A DNA stretch of 40,716 nucleotides. Origin: a virus. A program made the position numbers and the translations under genes. The notes under the pieces are model-generated. The model was given only the letters and a program-made list of their open reading frames with translations. It was not told where the DNA came from and ran no database searches. Positions 315 to 33,340 of the stretch are shown here, one piece after another. Numbering within the stretch: position 1 is the stretch's first letter; every line of letters starts with the position of its first letter. Location: the UHGV virus genome UHGV-0322864, one strand, 5' to 3'.

Positions 315-1964
315 TTATTGAGTGAACCAGCTAGTGTCTTCGACAGCTGATAAAGCACCATTCAGTTTAGGATTGGTTGCTGCACCACCAACTGCTTCTT
401 CTGCTTGTTCAGAGAAAACACCTAGAGGGTCGTAGAAACCACCAGAAGGGATTGCACGGTTAACCAATGCAGTAGCTCTCTTCTTATCCATACCAGAACC
501 GATGTAAGCTTCAATCGTAGCTCTCTTAGCATCAGCAACACCTTTCATTGCAGAGGTGTGACCAACGTTAGCTTGCTTACGAGCATAAGCAAGAGCAGCA
601 TCAGTAGGACGCCATCCAGATTTCAGTGCAAACTTGTTGCCAACACGAACGAAGATTGATGGGTCTTCCGCAAAGTGCCCCAAGTCTTCTTCGGTAAGAG
701 AACGAGTAGCACCGATTTCAGCCCTTGCGGAGTTCATGATAGCCTGCATGTAAGCAGAACGAGCTGTCTGATAGTCTTTATCCTTAACAGCCTTATCAGC
801 CAAATCCAAGTCTTTGTTAGACTGGTTAAACAGGCCACCTTTCTCTGCCCACTGCTTAGCAACCGTACCTTCAGCTGTATTCTGAGCAAGACGAACTTCT
901 TTCGGGTTAAAGTTAAAACTCTGAGCAGCTTGTTCAGCACGTTCAGCCTTAACCTTATCACGATAGCCAATCAACTCTTTCTGACGTTCAAAGTTCATAT
1001 TAGCTCTTTCTTCAGCAGCACGACGAGTTTCATCAGCACGCTCACGCATAGTCTGCTCTTGAATCTGTTGACGTCTATCCCATTCAGCATTCTGTCGTTC
1101 TTCACGAGCAGCATACAGCGCTTCTTTCTGAGCAGGGTCTACAGCTCTCATCTTCAGTAGAGATGGGTCTCCGTTAGCAATAGCAGCTGCGATCGAGTCT
1201 TGAGAGAAGCCTTGTTCAATCAGAGCATCACGGTTAGCTTCCAGTTGCTTCTTAGTCTCATCTTGATTAGCCATTCCCTGACCAATCTGGAAAGCTTCAA
1301 TAGGAGACTTACCTGACATAATGGAAAGACCTACACCCATCAAACCTGTGTAGAAACTAGAGTTCTGATAGAATGGTTCTTTCTGTAGCTTGTTCCAAGC
1401 TTCCGAAGGGTCTTTAGCTTTCGCAACTTGCAAGATATCGTTGTTAACACGTTCCTGATCTTTAGCACGAGTAGCGGCAGTCATTCCATCACCAGCGTCT
1501 TGTCCTTGAGCAAGAGTATTAATCACACCTTGTGCCTGTTCCACCTGAGAAGGAGTAAACTCCATAGGACCAGCTTCTAACGGTTTAGTAGGAGGTGTTA
1601 CCGGAAGAGGTTCTGATTCTGGAGGAATAGAAGAAGGAGAAAGTCCAGCAGCTTGCATGGTTTCTTGATTCTCAAACTCAGGAAGAGTTACAGCCTGTTG
1701 TGCTTGAGGTTGTACATCATTTGGGATATCAGAAGGAAGACCATTACTCTGAACAGGATTCAACATATTCTGATAATCTACTGAAGTTTGACCTACAAGA
1801 GAGGAAAGCCCAGCAGGTATAGCAGGACGTTGATACATAGAAATATCTGCTGTCTGAGTTGGTCTAGCCATATAAGGAGAGGCCGAAGCCGCTCCCGGAT
1901 TAACACCATAGAAAGTATTTCTCGGGTCACGACTTCTGACCTGAGCGTAAGTTGTCTGTTGCAT
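315..1964 (-). CDS. hypothetical virion/internal protein (549 aa)
   Basis: Long ORF in the late operon; charged coiled-coil-like middle (ERQNAEWDRRQQIQEQTMRERADETRRAAEE); no recognisable catalytic motif. Confidence 0.6.
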   Translation of the reverse strand: MQQTTYAQVRSRDPRNTFYGVNPGAASASPYMARPTQTADISMYQRPAIPAGLSSLVGQTSVDYQNMLNPVQSNGLPSDIPNDVQPQAQQAVTLPEFENQETMQAAGLSPSSIPPESEPLPVTPPTKPLEAGPMEFTPSQVEQAQGVINTLAQGQDAGDGMTAATRAKDQERVNNDILQVAKAKDPSEAWNKLQKEPFYQNSSFYTGLMGVGLSIMSGKSPIEAFQIGQGMANQDETKKQLEANRDALIEQGFSQDSIAAAIANGDPSLLKMRAVDPAQKEALYAAREERQNAEWDRRQQIQEQTMRERADETRRAAEERANMNFERQKELIGYRDKVKAERAEQAAQSFNFNPKEVRLAQNTAEGTVAKQWAEKGGLFNQSNKDLDLADKAVKDKDYQTARSAYMQAIMNSARAEIGATRSLTEEDLGHFAEDPSIFVRVGNKFALKSGWRPTDAALAYARKQANVGHTSAMKGVADAKRATIEAYIGSGMDKKRATALVNRAIPSGGFYDPLGVFSEQAEEAVGGAATNPKLNGALSAVEDTSWFTQ

Positions 1965-1977
1965 ATTTGTCTCCTAA

Positions 1978-2946
1978 TTAAGTACTAGCCAACCCACCGA
2001 TTACACCCCCAGCTAATGCACCCCAAGGTCCAAAGGAAGAGCCTGCTGCTGCACCACTCATACCCCCTCCTAAGAAGCCACCCCTACCTCCAGATGTTTT
2101 AGTAGTTGTAGTTTGTCCGAGAGCACCGTTAAGTACACCTGCTGCACCGAGTTGGTTATTGATATCTTGCCATCCCCAATTAGCTGCGTTCTGAGCATTC
2201 TGGTAGGCATTATCATATTCATTCTGTTGTTGCTGTTGTTGCTGCAATCCTGCATTCCATTGATTCATTATTTGCTGTTGAGACAAATTAGCACCCTGCT
2301 GACCTAGGTTAGAAAGGTTAGAACCAATATTAGAAAGACCTGAGAGAGCAGCTGCTTGATTCTGTCTATTACCAGAGAGGATGCTTTCAGCTTGGCTAAT
2401 AGCCGAGTTATAGGCACTGTTGGTAATATCTGTTGCTTGGCCTTGCATCTGATTCAGAGCATCACCTTGGGCAAAAGATTTAGCCATACGAGCACCTGAA
2501 CCTTGCTGACCAGCAAACTGTTGAGCTAATTGAGGAAGAGCATTACGTGCCAAGTTCTGTTGAACCTGTTCATTATTAGCGGTAATGGCTGCTTGCACAG
2601 CATCATCGTCATACAGTTGACCAGCGAGAGCACCAATCTGTTCTCCAGTAATCCCACCTTGTCCAGAGAGGCTCTGGTAGCCTTTATAGGCATTATCCAG
2701 ATAACCCAACCCTTGACCTGCTGCATCCATATATTGCTGCGAGAGAGTCCCTAAAGCACCGGATTGAGCCAAATTATTAAGGGCTTCTGTCTGGTTGTTA
2801 TTAAATCCTACGTTGTCACGATAGACATAATCCCCTGAACTAGTATTACCAATCTGCTGGTTAAGCTGGTCAATATACTGTTGAATATATTCAGGGCGAA
2901 TCATTTGGGAAGTAGTTTTACTACCCCCTCCTCCGAAAAGTCCCAT
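1978..2946 (-). CDS. Q/N/G-rich low-complexity protein with glycine-zipper C-terminus (candidate ejection protein), paralog 1
   Basis: 322-aa ORF starting MGLFGGGGSKTT; Q/N/A/G-rich throughout; C-terminal GGFLGGGMSGAAAGSSFGPWGALAGGVIGGLAST. Confidence 0.6.
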   Translation of the reverse strand: MGLFGGGGSKTTSQMIRPEYIQQYIDQLNQQIGNTSSGDYVYRDNVGFNNNQTEALNNLAQSGALGTLSQQYMDAAGQGLGYLDNAYKGYQSLSGQGGITGEQIGALAGQLYDDDAVQAAITANNEQVQQNLARNALPQLAQQFAGQQGSGARMAKSFAQGDALNQMQGQATDITNSAYNSAISQAESILSGNRQNQAAALSGLSNIGSNLSNLGQQGANLSQQQIMNQWNAGLQQQQQQQNEYDNAYQNAQNAANWGWQDINNQLGAAGVLNGALGQTTTTKTSGGRGGFLGGGMSGAAAGSSFGPWGALAGGVIGGLAST

Positions 2947-2958
2947 ATCAAATCTCCT

Positions 2959-4011
2959 TTAGTTTGCTCCAAATGCCCCTAAGACACCACCTAAGATATT
3001 ACTACCTGCTGTGGATAACCAGTTAGACTGACCTCTCTGTTGAGAAAGATTAGAACCTCCAATCATAGGTCCAGCCATTCCAGATTGCCCACCTGAGTTG
3101 TTATAGGAACTCCAAGCATTCTGAGTCTGTTGGTTAGGAGAGAAAGCACCCATACGACCTGCAATACCTAAACCAGTGATACCAGCACCTAGGAGCTGTT
3201 GTCCAGTATTGACTCCCGGAGCAGCATTCTTAATCGTGTACCCAGCCATTGGACTTACACTGTTTAATACATTAAGCTGATTGTTAAGCTGATTCCACCC
3301 ATACTGCTGAGAGCCAATAGCGTTCTGCCAATTAATATCAGCTTGAGCTTGAGCTTGTTGCTGTTGAAGATTACCAGCCATCAGCTGATTCTGAATAGCT
3401 TGTTGAGTTGCCTGAACACCTTGAGCACCAAGATTGAGATTCTGTCCAGCCAATCCTGACTGAGCGCCAAGTAAGCCTCTCTGGAAGTTTTGATCTTGTT
3501 GAAGAGCGCTGATTCCCATATTCTTGCCACTGATAGTACGAGCTAAGTTTGTATTAGCACTGTTCAGAGCAGCACCTTGAGCAGCAGCTCTACGGAGAGA
3601 GCCTGAATCAGAACCATTTCCGAGAGATACATTGGAAGCTGCCTTACTAGTCGCTTGAGCAAGAGCTGAGTTATTCAAACCTTTACTAAAGTTATTAACC
3701 CCTTCAGCCGTTACTCCACCGCCATTAACAATATTCTGATACTGTTGAGCAAGGGAGTTGAGTTGGTCCAAACCTTGCTGTGTACGAGGTGTGTACATAT
3801 CAGCCAATTGCTTTTGAGTTGTAGAAGCTGCTAAGTTATTCAGAGCACCTTGTTGGTTGCCATTAAACCCAGCCAGCTGTTGGGAGATGAATCCCGGATC
3901 GTTGTTCTGCATATTCTGAGCATTAGCAACAATCTGCTTCAGCAGGGCATCAACCTGAGAGGAAGGGGCCACTGTGGTTTTGCTAGAAGCTGATTTTCCA
4001 AATAAAGACAT
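2959..4011 (-). CDS. Q/N/G-rich low-complexity protein with glycine-zipper C-terminus, paralog 2
   Basis: 350-aa ORF starting MSLFGKSASSKTT; same composition and C-terminal glycine-rich hydrophobic tail (ILGGVLGAFGAN) as the neighbouring ORF. Confidence 0.6.
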   Translation of the reverse strand: MSLFGKSASSKTTVAPSSQVDALLKQIVANAQNMQNNDPGFISQQLAGFNGNQQGALNNLAASTTQKQLADMYTPRTQQGLDQLNSLAQQYQNIVNGGGVTAEGVNNFSKGLNNSALAQATSKAASNVSLGNGSDSGSLRRAAAQGAALNSANTNLARTISGKNMGISALQQDQNFQRGLLGAQSGLAGQNLNLGAQGVQATQQAIQNQLMAGNLQQQQAQAQADINWQNAIGSQQYGWNQLNNQLNVLNSVSPMAGYTIKNAAPGVNTGQQLLGAGITGLGIAGRMGAFSPNQQTQNAWSSYNNSGGQSGMAGPMIGGSNLSQQRGQSNWLSTAGSNILGGVLGAFGAN

Positions 4012-4030
4012 AAGTCCTCCTTAAAGATTA

Positions 4031-4813
4031 TTACTTTACACCAATGCTAGCTAAACGTCTGAGCACTGCTTGTGTTTGTGGACTGTACTGAGAACCTGCT
4101 GCATGTGGTGCACTTGCCCTCTGAACTGTTTGAGAAGTAGGAGGTTTACCGGCAAGCATAGCAGCTACCCCTAATACTGCATTACCAAAGTTCTGTTGAG
4201 GCTTCTGGTTTTTACCTTCCTGCACTTCATCAGAGTAAAACTCTACTGGATTTCCGCCTAAAGCACCTGTCTTAGAAGCAGCAATCTCTGCCTGAGTTGG
4301 CGCTTGTGCGGCCTTCTCTCTATCTAACAAGTCAGGACTAAACTGATTGACTGGTTGAACAGCTTGCAAAGCTCCAACAGGGTTCGCAATCTGAGAAGCT
4401 GCATCACCATAGAAAGGAAGAAAGTGTTTATTGTTCATGGAGTCAAGAGCTTGTGGAGTAAACCCCTTTTTACCAGCGAACATTTGCTTAGCACCACCGA
4501 TACCCTCTGAGTAACCAACCATTGCTTTCTTGACATCACCATTAAAAGCCTTTAAGTTATCTCTAATATAACGAGCACCCATATCAATATTCTTTGCTGG
4601 GTCAAGTCTGTCTTCTAGTTTGTAACCGTAGTCTTTAGCCAATCCTTTACTGATCTGCATTAAACCTACAGGACCAGTTCCAGAAGCCGCTGTAGGACGA
4701 CCACTAGACTCTCTTTGGATTACAGCATGAATCAAAGCAGCAGGAATCCTATACTTCTTTGAAGCCTGTTGAACCATTGGGTCTAGTTCTTCAATACCCA
4801 TTTTAATTGCCAT
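4031..4813 (-). CDS. soluble lytic transglycosylase (SLT) domain protein, likely virion-associated
   Basis: N-terminal motif AALIHAVIQRESSGRPTAASGTGPVGLMQISKGLAKDYGY matches the SLT catalytic-Glu signature (ExxxQRESS...GLMQ); sits among structural genes. Confidence 0.8.
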   Translation of the reverse strand: MAIKMGIEELDPMVQQASKKYRIPAALIHAVIQRESSGRPTAASGTGPVGLMQISKGLAKDYGYKLEDRLDPAKNIDMGARYIRDNLKAFNGDVKKAMVGYSEGIGGAKQMFAGKKGFTPQALDSMNNKHFLPFYGDAASQIANPVGALQAVQPVNQFSPDLLDREKAAQAPTQAEIAASKTGALGGNPVEFYSDEVQEGKNQKPQQNFGNAVLGVAAMLAGKPPTSQTVQRASAPHAAGSQYSPQTQAVLRRLASIGVK

Positions 4814-6889: not shown

Positions 6890-9800
6890 TTATCTTCGTC
6901 CGCCAACAGCAAACTCTATCGTTAACCCATTGATAGCAGCATTACTGTTAACATCATTATCTATAACATTATAGAAAAGGTATGGATGGTTCAGTCTCAC
7001 AGAGACATGCCTGTCAACACCGATCGTGTATGTCTTAGATGTGTGTGGGTGTCCATATTCATTTGAGAATTGACTACCACCAGCTTCAAATATGTAAGTA
7101 CCTGAACCAGTTGTCTGAGGTCTGAACCTGTTGATATGTTTCTGATTCCATTCGTTAGTGATGTTATCAAAATCCATACCAGTTCTTTCTAACCTCATCT
7201 CCAGTGGTTTTTCTATAACCTTATCATTAAGCCTATCATAGAAGTAATCCAAAGCACCAACATCCACTTGATAGAATCCCCTCAAGAATGAACCTACTAT
7301 CGTAACCCTCTGTCTAAAGTTTGTTGCATCCTTTCTCCAAACAAGTTCTTTGATAGATGGGTCATCCCAAGTGATCTCTTGGAAGTCAGACCAGATTGGA
7401 CCTCTCTCTAAAACAGGAGGGTCAACCAGACCGATACACTGAGCATAAGGGATAGTACGGAAAGACCAAGTATCAAACTCATAATTCCATACAGCAGCTT
7501 TAGTGCAAGCGAAGCTTTCTTTCGGCTCTCCCGGACCTACATAGAGAACCCAAACTTCTTTCTTATCCTGATGCAAGTGTACTCGAGTAGCTAGAGGGTT
7601 AACCAGACAAACCTCGTTAATCAGCATGTTCTTAACACGGTTAGATGCAATTGACTTCTTGGTTGCACCATTGTGTAAGATCACATCGTTCTGAGTAACT
7701 ACGAAATGACTACCTTCTACTTCAACCACACACTCAGGAGCAAGGATACCAGAGTCATTAAAGAGTTTCTTGAACATCAGAGGTTGGTATGTGTTATTAG
7801 TTGGAGAACCAATATACGTTTCAAACTCTGTATAAACGAACAAGTAGTCTTTAAGAGGCAGGATATCAATCAAGCTACCATTAGAATCGGCTAGGTCAAT
7901 GTAACCAGCATACCCATTCTCTAGAGCCTGAGTCTGCCCTACGATGTTAGAAGCTAAGTCCGAAGACACAACTCGATCATAGGCAAAGTCATCCCACAGT
8001 GTAGGAGCCTTGTTCTCATTGGCAAAGTTAGACCAACGAAGACGAAGCGGATAGTTAGTGGTAACACCAGAAGCATTAGCCTCTCTCATATTCAGAGCAA
8101 AAAGACGGTTGTTAAAAGATCTCACTCTCTCACATTTCCAGTTAAACTTCTTGACTGAAGGGTTTCCATCATTATCAACAACTGTTTGCTCACCCCACCC
8201 CGGGAGGTCTACAAAGTATTCTGATTCGAATTCTTTTACCTGAGGAGTTTCATAGTGAGTTGTAGCAACTGCACAGTTAGAGATAACAGCGTGATACCAA
8301 GGGTAGTCATCAAAAGCATCATAATCTTTCTGAGTCATCTGGCTGACAGTACATGTTACGTTAATCTCTCCTTTACGAAGAGCAACCAGTTTGATAGATT
8401 TACCAGTAACTGAAGTTGTAGAAACATAACCAGTTTTATCAACAGACCACTGATAAGAGTACTCACCTTCTGGAGAAGCTGTGGCTGTAATGACAATCTC
8501 TTCACCAACATCAAGGGAGGCGCTGACAATATCTAAGGTTACAGACGACAAAGGGGTTGCCAGTAAAGAAGCTCTTGCAAAACCTTCAATGTCATTCACG
8601 TTAGAGTAGTCGTAGAAGTTGTTACCTTCATACATCCCTGACGTATCAATACCGGATGTAGGCTCAGCAAAATAAACCGTCTCTTCACTTTCAGGAGGAG
8701 TTACTACTTCTTCCTCTTGAGTTTCTACTGACTCTGACACAGGAGCGGCAAATGCCATAGCACTTGTTCTCATTGTCCTTCCAGCTAAATCCACACGTAC
8801 AGTACAGACAGCAACTCTGTTACCTTCTTCAGTGGTAGCTGTAATCTCAGTAAAACCAGCAAGCAGAGCGTTGATCGTCCCTTGTGTGCTAGTCCCTGAT
8901 ACTGTTGCAATATTTGGGTTAGAAGAGGTCCAAGTAATATTTTGATTAGGGGCGTTAGCAGGAGAAAGGGTGGCAGTTAAAATATACTGAGAACCTCTAC
9001 TCACAGTAACATCTGACTGGCTTAAAGAGATACTATCAATCTGAGGGATAGAAACAATCTCACAAGAAGCAGTCTTAGTCCCGTTATCAGCAGTGATTGT
9101 TACATTACCTTCTCCATTCGCTGTAATGACAGCAGTTAAAGAGTTGGCGTTAGGGGTTACAGATACAATAGAAGCGTTATTGCTGGACCAAGTTACAGGG
9201 GTTTTGCCAGTAACAGCCGTGAGGGTAGTAGTCCCTCCTTTACGAATTGTAACAGTATCTTGACTCAAGAAGATGCCTGAATCACCATCGATGATATTAA
9301 CAGCAATCTGAGCCACTACGGATTCATTGGCAGTAGAGATAGTTACTACAAGATTACCCTCTTTCTCAAAAGATGTTAGAGTAGCAAGTTTAGAGTCACT
9401 AGGGTCTACCGTAATACTTCCATAGGATGAGTTACTAACCTCCCAAATAAGATCGGTATTGTTAGCATCAGCAGGGAGAAGAGAAACCTCTAGATTCTTG
9501 GTCTGATTGAAGTTCATTGAGATAGTTGATTCTTTAGGAACGATCTGAGAAACAACTGGATAAATCTTAATTGAGGCAGAAGCCTTCTTAGTGACTGTAG
9601 CAACCTTACGGCTAATATCAGTCAAGCTTTCATCTGTCAGTTTATATAACTTCTTATCAGTACCTACAACAAGAAAGCTATTACCTGCGCTATAATAATC
9701 GAAAGGCATAGAAACGAAAGACAGAGGGGTTAAATCCTTATCTTCATCTACATAAGAAAGAGGGGCATTGCCCCCCGTCTTAAATACTCTCTGCTCAACA

Positions 9801-23660: not shown

Positions 23661-25202
23661 TTAGTAGCTCTGATTCCATCTGCTTACGTTTGCCTCATAC
23701 AAAGAAGCGCTTCCGAAGCTAACATCATGCTTAGAGCGACCACGATGTGTAACAGAGCACGCTGAATAGCGCATTGCATCCATTAAGTCATCATGTTCTT
23801 TAATAATCTTACCAACCTTACGGTGATATCTAGCTTTCTCTTCGAATAGCTTAGCGTTAGCGGCTGTGTTAAAGACTTTAAAGCGTCCACTCATCATTCT
23901 TTCTCGGATATCTGTGATTCCCGGTTCTACAAAGAAGTTCTTTTTACCATCCATTCCAATTTTGTTGTAGAAGGTCTCACTCTGTACGTTAACTCCTGCA
24001 TTCTTATAGAATTGAGCAACAGATGAACCACTACCTTTCTCAATATTGTCCGCATCGTGCGGTAGGATGACAGGAATCCACTGACCACGACCATTAATAG
24101 CTGGAGCATGATACACTGGAGTAAAGCCACCTTCTTTATATGAGTCGTAAACATAGATAGTATCCGTGTTTGCGTCATAAGCTGTCCAAACAGCAGCAGT
24201 TGGGTGATCAATACCAATATCAATTGCACAGACACGTTTCCACGTATCAGGGATTTCGAATGGTTCACATTTAATTGTGTCATCCGATACATCATAAATC
24301 AAACCACTTCCTAACAATGGCATACCTTTCGAACGCATCTCTAACTGCCACGCTGGAATACCTTCAGTCATATCTTTTATATCTTGGTCAGTGATGTGTC
24401 CACCTAGGTCTGCATGAGCATCCCACCAAGAAGCATTCTGGAAATATAGAGAACCTGTGTTCTCATCTCCTTCACCTTTCATAAATTTATCTACCAGTTC
24501 AGTTAAACCGTTCTCTGGTGTAGCTGTAATTGTAACTAGACCTTTAGTTGTGAGTGTACGTGTGACGCACTGTGCGAATATAGCCATAGACTCATATGGA
24601 TCTTCTTCGTCTAACCAAATGTAGTCAACTGTTGCACCCATCAATGTGTGTTCACCCTGTTGGGTTGAACGAAATTCTAATGTACTTAAACCGTCAAACT
24701 CTCCTCTTTCATTTTGATGTTTGATTTGTACGATTTGAAGTTTGTTACCATCTCGTTCTATCGTATCAATGACGATAGCATCACGAGGAATGACACCTGT
24801 CCCTAATAAGTTTGTATCCTTTCCGATAGGTGTACCAAACAACTCCTTTTGCAATACCTTCCTTGTGGAATCCCCTGTAATACCAACTGCCCATGCTAAG
24901 ATAGGTCTTTTAAATTTATATCCTGTCCACCAAGTTGGGTAGCGACCTGTGACATGACAAGCAAACTCGTATGCCTCGCTATAAGATTTACCAACACGGT
25001 TCGCTGCACACAAGAACCTAAAGCGATGCTTCAATCCTGCTGCATAAAATTTCTTTTGGAAGTCATACGCCTTGAAAGACAAAATCCTATTATACTTCCT
25101 CCATTGGTCACGCTCTTTCAACATATTCAATAGTGCTTTCTTCTCGTCTACACTAAGGTTGTTACCAGTTAGAGCTTCATAAATTTGTTTATCTAATGAC
25201 AT
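23661..25202 (-). CDS. terminase large subunit
   Basis: Walker A LCAANRVGKS, Walker B VDYIWLDEE, RNase-H-like nuclease motifs CAIDIGIDHPTAAVW and DDLMDAMRY; 513 aa. Confidence 0.9.
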   Translation of the reverse strand: MSLDKQIYEALTGNNLSVDEKKALLNMLKERDQWRKYNRILSFKAYDFQKKFYAAGLKHRFRFLCAANRVGKSYSEAYEFACHVTGRYPTWWTGYKFKRPILAWAVGITGDSTRKVLQKELFGTPIGKDTNLLGTGVIPRDAIVIDTIERDGNKLQIVQIKHQNERGEFDGLSTLEFRSTQQGEHTLMGATVDYIWLDEEDPYESMAIFAQCVTRTLTTKGLVTITATPENGLTELVDKFMKGEGDENTGSLYFQNASWWDAHADLGGHITDQDIKDMTEGIPAWQLEMRSKGMPLLGSGLIYDVSDDTIKCEPFEIPDTWKRVCAIDIGIDHPTAAVWTAYDANTDTIYVYDSYKEGGFTPVYHAPAINGRGQWIPVILPHDADNIEKGSGSSVAQFYKNAGVNVQSETFYNKIGMDGKKNFFVEPGITDIRERMMSGRFKVFNTAANAKLFEEKARYHRKVGKIIKEHDDLMDAMRYSACSVTHRGRSKHDVSFGSASLYEANVSRWNQSY

Positions 25203-26684: not shown

Positions 26685-27149
26685 AATTCTTCTCCTCTGA
26701 ATAAGAGTATAAAGGGCACATCATAAGACCTACCCGTAAAGGCCACCTCATACCAACAACCCGTGTACGCTGATAAAGGGAAGAGGTTTAAAGGGGACTT
26801 CATGTTAAGGCACCTTCATAAAGACCATGTCACGTTAAGGCCTATCCATCCATGTGCTGTGTTTAAGCTTACCACATTTACTACATCTCCAAGTGGACTT
26901 ATAAAGGGTGTGAACTCTTTCATCCCCGTAAGCTTTGCGTATCCGATAGTACTCATGATCACATTTGAATTGCTTAATGATTAACTTAATTTTCCACATA
27001 AGTTCTCTTTCAACCTTATATATAAGAGTTTAAAATTCTGATTTGACCGAGTGTGCCTAGCCGCTTCCCGCGCGTTTCCTAAAAAGGGGGAGTCCTCATT
27101 TAAAAAAGGGTTATTGGCAATGCCTTTACACCTCTCCCCAACGTTCCAA

Positions 27150-27650
27150 CCTTCCCCGTGCCTACTCCCCGTTATTCTTTCCCCGTGTATACTACCCAAT
27201 ACATTACCTACCCGTTTATTTAGTTCCCCTTTAAAGAGTGAGAGAAAGGCTAGACTCTGATAAGGCGTAGTCATAGTGACAATAAGAGAGCTAATAATAC
27301 CCATAAGTAATAGCCCACATCCCCCATAGTTTGATTGTAAATAGTTTCAATAGTAATGATTATGAGTGCAATAATGATGTATGTATTAATTAAGTGGAAA
27401 GATTATGTTTGATGTTTATTATTCTTTTAAGAATGATTGTTTTTATTTCTTTTAATACTTTCTTTTTCAGCGTACATGAGCGTAGCGAATGGTCTTTGAT
27501 GTTTGAGTTATACAATTATTTAAGTGGTATATTACTACCGCACTATCTGGCAGTGTTTCCCCGTGGTCTGTCCTGCGGTTGTGTGTTCCCCGTTTGTCCT
27601 GGTCTGTTGGTCTGCTACCCGTAGCGCCAGCGTAACACCCGTAGCGATAG
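27150..27650. repeat. clusters of short direct repeats in the divergent intergenic region
   Basis: Three TCCCCGT copies at 27152-27186; TTCCCCGT(G/T)...GTCCTG twice at 27557-27606; ACCCGTAGCG twice at 27617-27647. Confidence 0.5.
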
Positions 27651-27700
27651 TGTTATAAAGTAACAATAGCTAGTAAGCTGATTCTCTGAGTATGGAAAGT

Positions 27701-27722
27701 TTAACAAATTAAATTCCTTTAG
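27701..27722 (+). repeat. copy 1 of 22-nt motif TTAACAAATTAAATTCCTTTAG
   Basis: About 40 nt upstream of the early promoter at 27760. Confidence 0.5.
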
Positions 27723-27759
27723 TTTTCAGTGAGTTATAGGAAAGTTAGAAAATAAATGT

Positions 27760-27788
27760 TTGACAGTCTTTTCCTTTATTATATAGTT
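27760..27788 (+). promoter_or_regulatory. sigma70-type promoter for the first early operon
   Basis: TTGACA - 16 nt - TATAGT; a second TTGACA lies 30 nt downstream (27790-27795) without a good -10. Confidence 0.6.
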
Positions 27789-27825
27789 GTTGACAGTTAA
27801 TTGAATCTATCTAAGGAATAACGAA

Positions 27826-28317
27826 ATGGCTAAAGCAATGCAGGTAGTTAATCTGGCAAGTTATGCACTGGTTGCAGCTATCGGGGTTAGTGCACTGGTA
27901 ACTACTCTTTCTGATAAGGCTGTTGCTAGTCCTGCTCCTGCAACTGATGCCGCTAGTGTTTTCGTTAGTTCCATCAATAAGGGTTGGATGATTTGCAACG
28001 GTGCGGATAGTGACGGCAATACCATTGTCTTAAAAATGAAGTTTAGCAACGTAACAAATGAAGGCGTTCTCTTTCAGTCTAAAACGCTAGACAATCAGCC
28101 TAACAATGATCTAGTTCTCAAGCGTACCGATAATGATGCGGATATGGTGACATATGGCACTGTACAACGTTATGAAGACGTTAAGGCTGTAACCAATCTA
28201 GTGAGTTATGGTCCGGTTAATGAATCGATGATCGCCACTACCGTTTATAATAACGCTGATAATGCTGTTTATACTGTTCACGTTAATTTAGCCAACTGCA
28301 TTAAGGCTAGTAAGTAA
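27826..28317 (+). CDS. early secreted or membrane-anchored protein
   Basis: 163 aa; N-terminal hydrophobic segment LASYALVAAIGVSALVTTLS; SD AAGGAA; consensus sigma70 promoter ~60 nt upstream. Confidence 0.6.
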   Translation: MAKAMQVVNLASYALVAAIGVSALVTTLSDKAVASPAPATDAASVFVSSINKGWMICNGADSDGNTIVLKMKFSNVTNEGVLFQSKTLDNQPNNDLVLKRTDNDADMVTYGTVQRYEDVKAVTNLVSYGPVNESMIATTVYNNADNAVYTVHVNLANCIKASK

Positions 28318-28342
28318 ATAACCTATTTTCAGGAGTGTAAAA

Positions 28343-28594
28343 ATGGCTATCAAAGAAGTTAAGTTGTCTAATGGCTTTTCTTGTTTTGTTGGTGGGCAAT
28401 CTATCGAGTTTAATATGCGCGATGGTCAGATTATAGTTCCCGTTGTTGCTTTTTGTTCCATGAGCTTTAATGAGGCCAAAAAATGGCTTCAATTGGTGCG
28501 TATTGATATCAACCGCGATGATTTTCGATCAATCTATATTGACGGTGATTTGTCGCTTTCTGGCTTGCTTGAGATTGATTTACCTAAATGGTGA
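28343..28594 (+). CDS. hypothetical early protein (83 aa)
   Basis: ORF with SD AGGAG 8 nt before the ATG. Confidence 0.5.
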   Translation: MAIKEVKLSNGFSCFVGGQSIEFNMRDGQIIVPVVAFCSMSFNEAKKWLQLVRIDINRDDFRSIYIDGDLSLSGLLEIDLPKW

Positions 28595-28613
28595 TAAGAG
28601 GATTGGAAACGTT

Positions 28614-28877
28614 ATGGGGAATGAAACTATTGCGTTAATTGATACGCACAATTACGGTGGCGTTACTTTATCCTTTGATGAATCAATCGACGTTGGCTAT
28701 TTGTCCTTTCTTTCCAAAGGTGAGATACAAAATATCCGCTTTCCCGTTGTTTGTCTGGTGCAGGATTATATAACAGTTGGGAAGTATTTGGCGCAACGTG
28801 GGATTCTTCTGTCGCTGGAAGAAGTGGAACAGATCAGCGTAGCATTTTTTGGCGAGGGTATCAATGAAGAAGAATGA
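28614..28877 (+). CDS. hypothetical early protein (87 aa)
   Basis: Track ORF 28470..28877; the internal ATG at 28614 has SD AAGAGGA and follows the upstream stop, so start is placed there. Confidence 0.5.
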   Translation: MGNETIALIDTHNYGGVTLSFDESIDVGYLSFLSKGEIQNIRFPVVCLVQDYITVGKYLAQRGILLSLEEVEQISVAFFGEGINEEE

Positions 28878-28953
28878 TTATTTTTGGCGTTGCTTGTTCG
28901 TTGTTACAGTGGCGTTATTCGTCGCTGATATACTTTATTCTTACATTCTCTAA
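28864..28953 (+). CDS. possible 29-aa hydrophobic peptide
   Basis: ATG overlapping the upstream stop; MKKNDYFWRCLFVVTVALFVADILYSYIL; below the track size cutoff. Confidence 0.25.
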   Translation: MKKNDYFWRCLFVVTVALFVADILYSYIL

Positions 28954-28969
28954 CTAAAGGTTTATTGCT

Positions 28970-29335
28970 ATGTGGTTTATTAAATTCATCGTTAAAATGG
29001 TTGTAGGCTTCTTTCTGGTCGTTCTTCTGTTAGGTGTCCTGTTATCGGCTATGGGTAGCGTTAAGGCTGCAACGTTTTCCCCTGCTACGGTTGACGGGTT
29101 GCAATGTACCTATCTCGTAGAGAATTACGAAACTGGTAAAAAGTCACCTAAAGTTATTATTTTGCATGTAAATGATTTCGATCATGTACAATCATACGAT
29201 AAAACTATTCAACTGGTAAACGAATCCAATGGTAAACAAATCACGGTCGATCACTTGATGCGCTCATCGTTGACGCTCTTTGATGAGTCCATGAATGAAA
29301 TGGCATCCGGTAACGGTCAATGTGTAAATCCATAG
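28970..29335 (+). CDS. membrane or secreted protein (121 aa)
   Basis: N-terminal TM/signal MWFIKFIVKMVVGFFLVVLLLGVLLSAMG; followed by an intrinsic terminator. Confidence 0.5.
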   Translation: MWFIKFIVKMVVGFFLVVLLLGVLLSAMGSVKAATFSPATVDGLQCTYLVENYETGKKSPKVIILHVNDFDHVQSYDKTIQLVNESNGKQITVDHLMRSSLTLFDESMNEMASGNGQCVNP

Positions 29336-29411
29336 GACTAATCTTTCTCCTGTATTGTGCCGTGGTCATGCCTATGGTCATAATCTATCTGATGCTTTAA
29401 ATCCTTCCTGT

Positions 29412-29439
29412 AAGCCTCCTAGTGAGGCTTTTCTATTTT
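29412..29439 (+). terminator. intrinsic terminator closing the first early operon
   Basis: AAGCCTC-CTAGT-GAGGCTT followed by TTCTATTTT. Confidence 0.6.
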
Positions 29440-29596
29440 CTAAGGTGATTGTATCCCTTACTCCCTTTTAGCTCGTTATAGTGCGTTCTAGGCCGCTAAA
29501 TATCGCTTTACAAGCCATTTTCTATGATGTATCACGCGCTCCCGCTCTTTTATCTTCCCTATAGTGAAAAAGTTTAAAATAATTTGCTTTACCCTA

Positions 29597-29624
29597 TTGC
29601 ATAGCCATAAAACTGGCGTATACT
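29597..29624 (+). promoter_or_regulatory. weaker sigma70-like promoter (P0) of the tandem cluster
   Basis: TTGCAT - 16 nt - TATACT. Confidence 0.35.
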
Positions 29625-29722
29625 GATTTCTATCGGGTACGATGTAAAACATACAAGGCAAGGAAACTTGCCCCGCTCTTTAAAAATCAGGCTAGAAAGT
29701 GAAAATATTCTTAAAAAGAGTA

Positions 29723-29751
29723 TTGACACCAGAAAAAGCCTGATATATAGT
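29723..29751 (+). promoter_or_regulatory. consensus sigma70 promoter P1
   Basis: A-rich UP-like TTAAAAAGAG, then TTGACA - 17 nt - TATAGT. Confidence 0.7.
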
Positions 29752-29867
29752 GAGCATAAGTCAGCGATGACGTGAAATATCCCGCTCTTTAAAAACTTAT
29801 CATCTTGCCCTTTCGCATAGATTCAAGCGAGATAAGGGAACGGAATAAAAGAAGATGATAAAAAGAG

Positions 29868-29895
29868 TTGACAAGCTAACACGGTGTGTTAAGCT
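29868..29895 (+). promoter_or_regulatory. sigma70 promoter P2
   Basis: ATAAAAAGAG then TTGACA - 16 nt - TAAGCT. Confidence 0.5.
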
Positions 29896-30024
29896 ACAAA
29901 TGCAGTAACCGCTCTTTAAAAATATGAATCATAAGTTAAGCCTCACCGCTTAATCTTCAATCAAATATAGCTGATTGATATATCCTCCCAATAAGGGGAG
30001 CGACGAAAAAGATTAAAAAAGTGG

Positions 30025-30053
30025 TTGACAGCTAAAACAGCATGATTCATAAT
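30025..30053 (+). promoter_or_regulatory. sigma70 promoter P3
   Basis: ATTAAAAAAGTGG then TTGACA - 17 nt - CATAAT. Confidence 0.65.
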
Positions 30054-30975
30054 GAGCACTCACTAAGCAAATCATCGCGAAGTGAACAGCGTAACAACGG
30101 CTAACAGTTGCATAGTGTGAGAAAGCACACTGATAGATTTACCGCTCTTTAATAATTTAAACATTCTCCTATATCGGTTGAATATGCTTGATGATAATAA
30201 CCATCGGAAAGCATACCAGATAAAACGGTGTAAGATTCTCTAAACTATCAGAGAAAACAATCTTACAATCCCTTGCTGGAAACGTCACCACTGATAAACG
30301 GATTCATTGAGTGTACGCAAAGACTTAAGCTAATCGCCCACGGTTAAGGGTAGCGGCGGTCATCGCTAACAAGGCGCTACAGTGAAAGAAGTTAATCAGG
30401 GTAGGCAAGCCCGAAGAATTAACGCTCAATTGAGAGCGGCGGGGAGTGGTTAAAAAGTGGCAAATTGCTATTTAACAATAAGGTTTAGTGTGAACGTTTA
30501 CGATGTGAACGGCTTGAGATTCATCACAAGATGAAAGTACATAGTCGGTTTATGTAGTAAACTTGCCGAAAGATATAAAACGTCAGAACATTAGACGGTC
30601 AATGACTCTTTCACAATAGCATCCCGTTGTGGGCGATGGCTAGTGATTGAGAGTTGATACAAAAGGATAGGCGAGAGCGAAAGCAAAGTAGACGATATTG
30701 CCGACGGTTACAATAAACGTAACTAATTAGAGTCGGACGCACTGCCTTATTGTGATGATTGATCATCGCTATCAGGTCGGCTTCGTTTATAGCGACTAAT
30801 TAAAGATACCAGATGAAACATCACGGATAAGGGGGCGGCAAGGTTAACTCCTGATAAGACCGCCCCGCTTACCTATAACTACTTAACAACGAGTGGTTAT
30901 AGTTAAGTTAATAGTGACTTAAACAAGCTCATAGAGAGCGGGGCATAGTGCCCTAACAATTGAAAGGTGAATATC

Positions 30976-31875
30976 ATGGCTAAAGTTTTTAATCTGGTAA
31001 AAGAATCTGGTTTTAACGCACTGGCTAACAACATTCGTAGCAATAACGCGGCGATTAAGCAAGATGTTTCTAACTTCCTGTTAGGCCATTTGCAGCACTT
31101 TCGTAGCAACGGCAAGAAGTTAGATGTATTGCAGTCGGCGGTTGATTTTCTGTTAACCGAACGTTTTCGTGATATGGATGTGATCGCCACTGCAATTACT
31201 TTCTTAACTCCTATCAAGTTTAACACCGATGCGGCAAATGGTCGTAAAAAGTGGATTAATCTGGAAGGTGAGGCGAAAGCGAAAGAAGATGCGAAAGAAG
31301 CGCAAATTAAGGCCAAAATGGAACAAAACCGCGCTCGCTGGTCAAACGCTTTCGAAAACTTTGCTTTAGGTCGTGAAATTGAAGTCGATAACCCTAACTT
31401 TTACAAGGGTTGTAATGACAACGTGGCGGCACACCTGCAAATACCGGCGAAAAACAAGGAAGATTTTAATCAGGATATTTACGCTTTAGTTGAACGCTTG
31501 AATGCAATCCGTATTGAAGCCAAATTACTGGCTGATGAGCGCAACGGCGCAACTAGCGATAACACTATCGCCCTGAGTGAAGAAGTTGGGAAGGTTAAAA
31601 AGTCCTTTGATTCACTCATCAAGAAAGTCACGGCCTCAATGGTAGCGATCTCGGATGATTATCTGATGAACGCATCAAGCAAGGAATTAGAATCACTCGA
31701 TTCATACGCTGATGAAATGGAAAAGACTGTTGCAGCTATGCAGGAGAAGTTAGAAAGTCTGCGCGGTCGTATCTCTTCAACGGTTGCTACCCGTACCGAA
31801 CAAGCGGCGAAAGCAGAAGAGGAAGAAGTGTTGCGTAAAGCGGCTGAAATTATGGCGGCACGTCAAGCGGCATAA
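30976..31875 (+). CDS. hypothetical helical protein (299 aa), first gene after the promoter cluster
   Basis: Track begins at GTG 30967; ATG 30976 with SD AAAGGTGA is preferred; coiled-coil-like C-terminal half; followed by a strong terminator. Confidence 0.6.
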   Translation: MAKVFNLVKESGFNALANNIRSNNAAIKQDVSNFLLGHLQHFRSNGKKLDVLQSAVDFLLTERFRDMDVIATAITFLTPIKFNTDAANGRKKWINLEGEAKAKEDAKEAQIKAKMEQNRARWSNAFENFALGREIEVDNPNFYKGCNDNVAAHLQIPAKNKEDFNQDIYALVERLNAIRIEAKLLADERNGATSDNTIALSEEVGKVKKSFDSLIKKVTASMVAISDDYLMNASSKELESLDSYADEMEKTVAAMQEKLESLRGRISSTVATRTEQAAKAEEEEVLRKAAEIMAARQAA

Positions 31876-31897: not shown

Positions 31898-31932
31898 AAG
31901 GCGCTATCTTAACGGGTAGCGCCTTTTCTTTT
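31898..31932 (+). terminator. intrinsic terminator after the 299-aa gene
   Basis: AAGGCGCTA-TCTTAACGG-TAGCGCCTT followed by TTCTTTT. Confidence 0.7.
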
Positions 31933-32701: not shown

Positions 32702-33145
32702 GTGGCTAAATCTAAAATCAGCATGAAGGGCGGGCGTTGTTTTGCTATCTCTGAACTAGAGAAAGAGAAATCGAAGGCAACTAATCACGTTAGTAAGCGT
32801 AGTTTAAAACGTCGTGCTGCAAAGGCTGAGGCTGAATCCCATGTTCCTTCCAGTGTGGCAAAACGTGTAGGCCATCGTGTCCATCGTGCTGATGCGTTAT
32901 TATTAGCCGATCATAAACGTTCTTTATTAAAGAGCGGGGGAGCTAAAACAGAAGAAGAGAAGAAGTTAGAAATCTTCTGTAATGGTCGCACCCGTGGTAA
33001 ACAGAAGTTTAAAGGTAGCACGAAAGACCCGCAGGCTTTCCCTAAGACAAGTCAGTGTGCGCCTGATGTTTTCTACGCAGACAGTAAACACAAGTGGGGA
33101 GTTGAAAAATACATTGACCCCATCAAAGAGGCAAGGGTTAAGTAG
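32702..33145 (+). CDS. highly basic K/R-rich protein (nucleic-acid-binding candidate)
   Basis: GTG start with SD GAAAGGAA; 147 aa, about 25 percent K+R. Confidence 0.5.
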   Translation: MAKSKISMKGGRCFAISELEKEKSKATNHVSKRSLKRRAAKAEAESHVPSSVAKRVGHRVHRADALLLADHKRSLLKSGGAKTEEEKKLEIFCNGRTRGKQKFKGSTKDPQAFPKTSQCAPDVFYADSKHKWGVEKYIDPIKEARVK

Positions 33146-33310: not shown

Positions 33311-33340
33311 GCCCCGGCTACGGCTGGGGCTTTTTTATGC
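33311..33340 (+). terminator. strong intrinsic terminator
   Basis: GCCCCGGC-TACG-GCTGGGGC followed by TTTTTTAT. Confidence 0.75.

Follow-up and report, generated by a model that had tools for sequence, protein, structure and literature searches.

The window analysed here (the whole 40,716-nucleotide (nt) stretch of the virus genome UHGV-0322864, to which all coordinates refer unless a contig is named) belongs to a phiEco32-like (Kuravirus) podophage and carries on its plus strand an array of four predicted sigma70 promoters, each followed by a copy of a short conserved motif (29597–30155), then about 0.8 kb of structured non-coding sequence (30156–30954) and the gene for a gp124 homolog (30976–31875). 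The region matches 98 phage records at 76–94% identity, all of them from phiEco32-like podophages of E. coli or Shigella (Gordonclarkvirinae; Kuravirus and Suseptimavirus), and the plus strand of the window is the equivalent of phiEco32's leftward 'functional' gene cluster, in which the counterpart of the region is the 1.9-kb gap separating genes 125 and 124. The right genome end of phiEco32 aligns at window position ~27059; thus, the window crosses the terminal repeat, and the promoter/motif cluster lies 2.5–3.1 kb inside the right end. The window also takes in, in the area of ~27059–27800, the junction of the late genes (minus strand) with the early genes (plus strand). An earlier note on this DNA had placed the promoters in a 620-nt stretch free of open reading frames (ORFs) and had likened them to the promoter clusters situated at the genome end of other phages; the ORF-free stretch is in fact ~1.5 kb long (~29472 to 30966), and the cluster is found inside the end rather than at it. 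The stretch follows an intrinsic terminator (29412–29430, plus strand; AAGCCTC-CTAGT-GAGGCTT, then a T-rich tail), which ends the upstream early operon and is also annotated in the SU10, 4E8 and SU7 records. In the GenBank record of CHD5UKE1 (contig L001, 2647–4237), 11 tiny 'hypothetical proteins' are annotated on both strands over the promoters, the motif copies and the structured RNA; the many tiny proteins that GenBank records annotate here probably do not represent real genes.

The repeated motif is, by its sequence, BoxA, the RNA element bound by host NusB/NusE in processive antitermination. Four perfect matches to the gamma-proteobacterial BoxA consensus GYTCTTTAANA derived by Baniulyte et al. 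(PMC5725501) lie within 480 nt on one strand (29675, 29784, 29911 and 30144), with 0.40 expected over the two strands of the entire window; the rrn BoxA consensus reads UGCUCUUUA (PMC6614797). Copies 1 to 3 (GCTCTTTAAAAA in each case; 29675–29686, 29784–29795 and 29911–29922, plus strand) are located at about +44, +26 and +9 from the predicted transcription starts, and copy 4, the last one (GCTCTTTAATAA; 30144–30155, plus strand), holds the longest invariant block of the region, GCTCTTTAA.AAT, in an alignment of 20 diverged sequences with 58% mean identity. The conserved core is the 12-mer GCTCTTTAANAA and not the 10-mer CCGCTCTTTA given in the earlier note. The 10-mer occurs exactly on the plus strand at 29673, 29782, 29909 and 30142 (chance expectation 0.07) and once on the minus strand (32928); its leading CC is variable among relatives (AC, CA, TT, TA and AT are seen), and its one-mismatch variants in 12 relatives have their changes confined to these first two bases. 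Of the five same-orientation copies listed there, four are exact and the fifth, at 29542, is degenerate (CCGCTCTTTTATC) and kept only in O18-011 and MN05; its BoxA-like part (GCTCTTTTATC; 29544–29554, plus strand) carries an A-to-T change at position 8, has no promoter found ahead of it, and is of uncertain status.

Within the core, variation is limited to the consensus N, which may be A, C or T; at position 12, which lies outside the search pattern, A is found throughout, just as it is in rrn. In E. coli K-12, the rrnH leader runs from P2 (TTGACT-16-TAATAT) through a hairpin to CAACTGCTCTTTAACAATTTATCAGACAATCTGTGTGGG, and the stretch of this leader that was compared with the phage copies (..CAACTGCTCTTTAACAATTTATCAG..) shares 18 consecutive nt with one SU7/PAS59 copy and 19 nt with a copy in the metagenomic contig L020. 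Reported affinities for NusB:NusE are 5–8 nM for rrn-type BoxA vs. about 80–90 nM for the BoxA of lambda nut (PMC2800207), and BoxA has been described as necessary and sufficient for assembling the rrn antitermination complex (PMC10250234). Two other consensus matches in the window, at 23795–23805 (plus strand) and 32925–32935 (minus strand), are both antisense to local genes and most likely due to chance.

Each of the four BoxA copies lies behind a predicted sigma70 promoter on the plus strand: TTGCAT-16-TATACT in module 1 (29597–29624; 8/12 consensus matches), TTGACA-17-TATAGT in module 2 (29723–29751; 11/12), TTGACA-16-TAAGCT in module 3 (29868–29895; 9/12, with TAGAAT or TATACT as the -10 element in relatives) and TTGACA-17-CATAAT in module 4 (30025–30053; 11/12). 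All four have A-rich upstream tracts (those of modules 2 and 4 being upstream of the -35 element), and the predicted starts are at about 29631, 29758, 29902 and 30060. The promoter and motif coordinates of the earlier note were correct within 1–2 nt. Two of its three strong promoters, at 29723 and 30025, are strong by our scoring as well, while the one at 29868 reaches only 9/12 at a conserved position; the one it called weaker, at 29597, is indeed weak in this window and also conserved in position. At these two weak sites, the -10 hexamer is better in some of the relatives. Across both strands of the window, sigma70 matches of at least 11/12 are found only at 27760, 29723 and 30025, all on the plus strand. 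A generic scan at 9/12 returned 5 sites vs. 7.9 expected from shuffles, i.e., no enrichment, so that we give weight only to the near-consensus sites and to their conservation.

The sigma70 early promoters of phiEco32 have reportedly been mapped, and the promoter cluster itself is probably already known. According to published work, sigma70 holoenzyme transcribes the early genes of phiEco32 from promoters in the upstream part of the gene cluster, the promoters of the phage sigma factor being placed further down the cluster. The interpretation of the region as an early promoter cluster for host RNA polymerase, made in the earlier note, fits the sequence, its conservation and these phiEco32 data, with the amendment that it is a second promoter group: a separate early promoter (TTGACA-16-TATAGT; 27760–27787, plus strand) lies nearer to the genome end and serves the small genes at 27826–29335. 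In contrast to the promoters of the array, its leader is short, translated and without BoxA.

A short hairpin precedes most BoxA copies, both in the window and in relatives. In module 1, the hairpin GGCAAG-GAAA-CUUGCC (29657–29672, plus strand) directly abuts BoxA and appears in relatives as GGCAA-GAAA-UUGCC or GGCAC-UUA-GUGCC; in module 2, the hairpin GUCA-GCGA-UGAC (29760–29771, plus strand), with a GNRA loop, covaries (UUCA-GCGA-UGAA, GGUCA..UGACC). A boxB-like hairpin, UAGUGUG-AGAAAG-CACACUG (30113–30132, plus strand; helix 4 of the alignment fold described below), ends 11 nt 5' of the last BoxA and shows compensatory pairs. At this position, a hairpin of 5–7 bp with an A-rich loop (AGAAAG, GUAGAAA, AUAAAA or UUAAG) ends 8–13 nt upstream of BoxA in 21/21 genomes, which have 12 different stems among them. 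The statement of the earlier note that the motif has no hairpin is contradicted by these data. The hairpin-then-BoxA order is the boxB–boxA order of rrn.

The motif search in related phages that the earlier note had proposed showed the motif to recur in 13 close and 9 distant relatives (among the latter, identity of the adjacent protein falls as low as 23%), each with 2–6 BoxA copies. In the 13 close genomes, 54 copies are arranged in 3–6 modules per genome, nearly all of them 8–170 nt past a predicted sigma70-type start, with an A-rich tract located just 5' of the -35 element. The modules have been exchanged between phages, and each still consists of a promoter, usually a hairpin, and BoxA. 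Eight of the distant relatives are metagenomic contigs found by protein homology search, encoding gp124 homologs 49–70% identical to that of the window, with 1.4–3.4 kb free of called genes ahead of the gp124-homolog gene. In about 72 kb of these contigs, 23 strict BoxA copies are present upstream of this gene on its own strand and none on the opposite strand, most of them behind a 9–11/12 promoter. A blind scan of IMG/VR with a BoxA 14-mer and a cluster filter brought up a 90-kb contig (L081; region 1441–4252), in which three promoter–BoxA modules are followed by an ORF-poor, structured leader of about 1.2 kb (z = -4.1) and by the gene of a 299-amino-acid (aa) protein that shares 23% identity with the gp124 homolog (E = 2e-9).

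Some further BoxA clusters and modules were seen alongside these. Strict BoxA clusters are also present in two other IMG/VR contigs, L050 (~7325–7494, minus strand) and L115. SU7 (L005, 1013–1366), PAS59 (L011, 1513–1866) and TH34 (L012, ~1252–1360) contain an additional upstream module, whose BoxA (TTGCTCTTTAA.AA) directly adjoins a hairpin; in SU7 and PAS59, an annotated 66-aa ORF (SU7_114 in SU7) begins about 55 nt further on, a spacing that recalls the suhB-type layout.

This pattern bears on two readings of the motif other than BoxA. Same-orientation repeats in promoter-rich, AT-rich non-coding DNA could be double-stranded DNA sites for a phage or host transcription regulator, or iterons for a replication initiator, and origins and operators frequently look similar. 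We consider this very unlikely: among the upstream regions examined, the transcribed strand carries 77/77 strict copies (and in the distant loci the opposite strand has none), their offset from the -35/-10 elements ranges from +9 to about +170, the spacing between the window copies is irregular (109–233 nt), and the copies are without dyad symmetry. Moreover, the motif exactly matches a host RNA element, and it adjoins a conserved RNA hairpin in which compensatory changes and G.U pairs occur. Of the two roles suggested in the earlier note, a regulator binding site or a 5' leader element, the second stands, and the element can now be named; a DNA site is argued against by the single strand, the variable offsets, the absent dyad and the coincidence of the one variable position with the consensus N. 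Alternatively, the copies could be passive, functionless remnants of duplicated promoter modules, as the modules are alike and direct repeats D3 and D4 connect the promoters (at 29711/30013 and 29849/30006). We give this scarcely any credence, because the 12-mer is invariant at 23–70% identity of the neighboring protein, varying only at the consensus N, in contrast to flanks that have diverged or been exchanged altogether; judged by sequence comparison, this conservation pattern already contradicts it.

Directly after the last BoxA begins what appears to be a large structured non-coding RNA, or a giant structured leader, of ~0.8 kb (30156–30954, plus strand). Folding an alignment of 30055–30990 with 12 relatives by RNAalifold gave 260 pairs in 40 helices, with compensatory change throughout the alignment. 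Paired cells amount to 98.7%, vs. 92.8% in shuffles and 33–46% with the partners slid, and pairs changed on both sides number 77, vs. 33.6 +/- 3.5 in shuffles (0/500 reach 77) and 5–10 with the partners slid. The excess of G.U over A.C cells (326 vs. 17) indicates that the folded strand is the plus-strand RNA. The single-sequence fold has an energy of -258 kcal/mol vs. -201 +/- 5 for shuffles (z = -10.8). Projected on the eight distant homologs through a sequence-only nhmmer alignment, the structure retains 64–84% canonical pairs vs. 35–41% when slid, with 250 compensatory cells. Domain I (30156–30454) is closed by the helix 30156–30169 x 30441–30454, which starts directly after BoxA and is 93% kept in the distant homologs, with 13 compensatory cells; domain II (30475–30753) is likewise closed by a long-range helix, and a 3' series of hairpins (30754–30954) stops just short of the gp124-homolog ribosome-binding site. 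The last BoxA lies 832 nt ahead of the start codon of the gp124-homolog gene in the window and 870–936 nt ahead of it in the eight distant contigs.

The plus strand of the RNA region has no ORF of at least 30 aa, and the RNA is G-rich and not C-rich. No Rfam 15 family matches anywhere in the window at gathering thresholds, and the best E-value over 29400–31050 in a search to E 10 is 1.7, far below threshold. A scan for tRNA and tmRNA found none, the RNA has no match among 5,426 complete E. coli genomes, and an IMG/VR scan with a conserved 19-mer from it returned only 3 contigs. It is likely a new structured RNA class.

Several candidate interactions and elements within the RNA were rejected. 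The sequence at 30932 forms a local hairpin, GCUC-AUAGA-GAGC (helix 39, with one compensatory change), and a long-range pairing of BoxA with a reverse 'anti-BoxA' at this site was rejected. Neither of the reverse partial copies described in the earlier note survives, as the one at 30932 is part of this covarying hairpin and the one at 32925 is not conserved, the relatives reading GCTCTGTA. A pairing of the BoxA flank with the Shine–Dalgarno sequence of the gp124 homolog (helix 5 of RNAalifold, also present in the single-sequence fold) is invariant in close relatives, keeps 61% of its pairs in distant ones and is unsupported. An internal UUGCUAUUUAACAAU (30465–30480), examined as a candidate second BoxA, has a mismatch at core position 4 and pairs within helices 20/21; it is probably not BoxA, though invariant. 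The invariant block around it, GCUAUUUAACAAUAAGGUUUAG (30465–30486, plus strand), is BoxA-like with A at core position 4 and base-paired in the model, and a similar CCUGUUUAACAAUAUGGUUUAG is present in L081 (2459–2481), about 300 nt past the last BoxA.

The first gene after the RNA encodes the gp124 homolog (30976–31875, plus strand; 299 aa, phrog_13018), which accompanies the RNA and the BoxA array in every case, even at 23% identity. It has no Pfam match above threshold and belongs to a PHROG family without known function; in its AlphaFold model (pLDDT 77), most of the protein is helical, including a long helix at the C-terminus, and a Foldseek comparison with the PDB gave no match (best E = 0.85). 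Its position, as the first gene past a nut-like site and ahead of a terminator, parallels that of lambda N. A strong intrinsic terminator with a 12-bp stem and a T tail (31898–31925, plus strand; intergenic, annotated in 4E8 and SU7) directly follows the gene, and a second intergenic one is found at 33311–33330 (plus strand). Between 31 and 40.7 kb, the plus strand carries about 25 small genes, no sigma70 match of at least 10/12 and no exact gp36-type TAATGTATA. As no strong promoter follows the terminators at 31898 and 33311, read-through is probably needed; together, the terminators and the lack of later strong promoters define a layout (promoter, nut-like site, first gene, terminator) that resembles lambda.

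Overall, we consider it probable, on the basis of these sequence features, that the region is an early expression cassette resembling an rRNA operon, in which polymerase modified by Nus factors transcribes early genes together with a long, structured and untranslated RNA. Host sigma70 holoenzyme would start at the four tandem promoters, so that each transcript would carry BoxA (GCUCUUUAANAA), usually with a small hairpin ahead of it. NusB/NusE(S10) would bind BoxA (GCUCUUUAAUAA) in the nascent RNA, and NusA, NusG and probably SuhB/S4 would join to yield a fast, termination-resistant polymerase. Such a polymerase could traverse the untranslated RNA of about 0.8 kb with no losses to Rho, probably at a higher speed, and may well run on past the terminators to reach the early genes. 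Rho acts on long RNAs that are not translated (PMC6614797), so an antitermination signal would be of use ahead of an untranslated RNA of this length. BoxA tethered near the RNA exit channel may in addition aid the folding of the large RNA: in the rrnTAC model (rrnTAC denoting the rrn antitermination complex), such aid by a tethered BoxA has been proposed for the 16S leader–trailer helix (PMC10250234), and if BoxA is held near the exit channel in the same way, the helix strand adjacent to the last BoxA may be kept until its partner emerges about 285 nt downstream.

A number of observations weigh against this interpretation. The rrn-type complex is described as suppressing termination by Rho, and the lambda N complex as withstanding terminators of both types (PMC6614797, PMC10250234); as the obstacles found here are intrinsic, an extra phage factor may be needed, and no N-like arginine-rich protein is evident among the upstream small ORFs. 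The RNA, being G-rich and heavily structured, may itself be a poor Rho substrate, and rRNA is intrinsically Rho-resistant (Baniulyte et al., PMC5725501). A similar long leader in Salmonella phage 7-11 is devoid of BoxA. Two of the four promoters, at 8/12 and 9/12, are weak here, and a few BoxA copies in distant relatives have no recognizable promoter inside 200 nt. Finally, there is no GU-rich boxC: BoxA is followed by AAUUUAAACAUUCUCC and similar sequences and by no UGUGUGGG-like element, the position of boxC being taken instead by the 5' strand of the long-range helix; boxB and boxC have been reported as dispensable for rrn antitermination (PMC6614797).

Some of the same observations can be read as pointing to RNA folding as the chief role of BoxA. 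According to this alternative, the copies bind Nus factors mainly to help co-transcriptional folding of the ~0.8-kb RNA, in line with the RNA-chaperone role proposed for rRNA, and the downstream genes use weaker promoters. The first long-range helix starting directly 3' of BoxA, the G-rich structured nature of the RNA as a poor Rho target, and the tightly conserved spacing between the last BoxA and the gene are all in its favor. We find it unlikely as the principal explanation, though worth serious attention, because the BoxA copies of the upstream modules lie 230–470 nt from the first helix of the RNA and do not fit tethering, and because terminators without subsequent promoters favor read-through. 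It is, moreover, compatible with antitermination, and the two roles are not mutually exclusive.

Abundant early transcripts with 1–4 BoxA copies could also act as decoys, titrating NusB/NusE/SuhB from the host rrn operons and thereby aiding host shut-off. Multiple BoxA elements per transcript behind near-consensus promoters, the nanomolar affinity of rrn-type BoxA for NusB:NusE, and the shut-off of host transcription that reportedly takes place in phiEco32 infection are consistent with such a role. Nothing specific speaks for it, however, and it does not account for the terminators downstream or for the conservation of the hairpin and of the spacing to the gene; in addition, phiEco32 already has gp79, a published inhibitor of sigma70 transcription, at its disposal. 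We therefore regard it as improbable. A bolder version of the rRNA-operon-like interpretation would treat the locus in phiEco32-like phages as an 'rRNA operon mimic', in which tandem rrn-like promoters and boxB/BoxA leaders drive a 0.8–0.9-kb multi-domain RNA to very high levels in the first minutes. The folding and synthesis of this RNA would depend on host Nus/SuhB, and it would act in its own right (e.g., in a ribonucleoprotein with the gp124-family protein, as a host-factor sponge or as an anti-defence RNA) and not only as a 5' untranslated region (UTR). We put this version forward tentatively, holding its chances to be somewhat below even.

No paper linking BoxA with phiEco32, or BoxA and NusB with a lytic phage, was found in the searchable literature, nor any earlier account of the ~0.8-kb RNA; the primary phiEco32 papers (Savalia 2008, Pavlova 2012) are outside that literature. 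BoxA-dependent modification of RNA polymerase is known in rRNA operons, lambdoid prophages, suhB and CRISPR arrays, and the BoxA array described here appears to be a new variation on this known antitermination mechanism. An rrn-type BoxA array in a virulent coliphage would, if true, represent a new route to takeover of the host polymerase, apparently without an N protein, and it would offer a concrete answer to the question of how sigma70 polymerase, setting out from a few right-end promoters, gets past several terminators and on through tens of early genes. The analysis has also brought to light a large, strongly covarying RNA without an Rfam family. Relatives that infect E. coli K-12 exist (BASEL Bas86-94), making direct testing possible.

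The closest parallel among known systems is the E. coli rrn leader. Its antitermination complex comprises NusA/B/E/G, SuhB and S4 assembled on the boxB hairpin, boxA and boxC. In both cases, tandem sigma70 promoters with A-rich upstream tracts (P1/P2 with UP elements in rrn) are followed by a hairpin and then by BoxA, with an identical core (GCUCUUUAACAA) and up to 19 nt shared with rrnH, and a long, highly structured untranslated RNA comes next, with a strand of a long-range helix directly after BoxA. The phage differs in having one BoxA per promoter (2–6 modules), where rrn has one shared leader, in having neither boxC nor a second (spacer) BoxA, and in its product, which is a ~0.8-kb RNA followed by protein genes and intrinsic terminators; the Nus dependence of the phage locus is one that we infer from sequence. 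The lambdoid nut systems share with it the succession of early promoter, BoxA-bearing RNA site, first gene and terminator, with several later terminators that lack promoters, and the hairpin loops of the phage, being A-rich or GNRA-like, are of a similar kind. Unlike nut, in which the order is boxA–spacer–boxB, the phage modules have their hairpin 5' of BoxA, and their BoxA is of the full rrn type vs. the weaker CGCUCUUA of lambda; the phage is virulent, its elements are arrayed, and no N-like arginine-rich protein was evident among its upstream small ORFs.

The BoxA elements of CRISPR arrays and of the suhB 5' UTR (Stringer 2020; Baniulyte 2017) resemble those of the phage in that the consensus is used outside rRNA, with polymerase passing through long untranslated RNA. 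These are single host elements, in contrast to the phage array, and the suhB BoxA lies <50 nt from the start codon and represses, whereas the last BoxA of the phage is 832–936 nt away. Salmonella phage 7-11 (L017/L018, at the genome-end junction) has an ORF-free leader of about 1.15 kb between its annotated early promoters and gene 151, for which the fold z-score is -4.9 and no BoxA consensus was detected. This leader may be an analogous structured leader; as a homolog of the Kuravirus RNA it was rejected, since nhmmer showed no sequence similarity. The authors of the 7-11 study wrote that the antitermination strategy of that related phage 'remains to be defined'. With GOLLD, ROOL, HEARO and OLE, the phage RNA shares a length of hundreds of nt, many covarying helices and a phage-borne occurrence; unlike them, it matches no Rfam family, comes from virulent coliphages and is situated behind BoxA modules and ahead of a conserved protein gene. 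Finally, the T7 A1/A2/A3 and T5 promoter clusters are likewise tandem strong host-polymerase promoters serving the early genes of virulent phages, whereas the cluster described here is placed behind the first small operon and its terminator, is interleaved with BoxA and feeds a long structured RNA.

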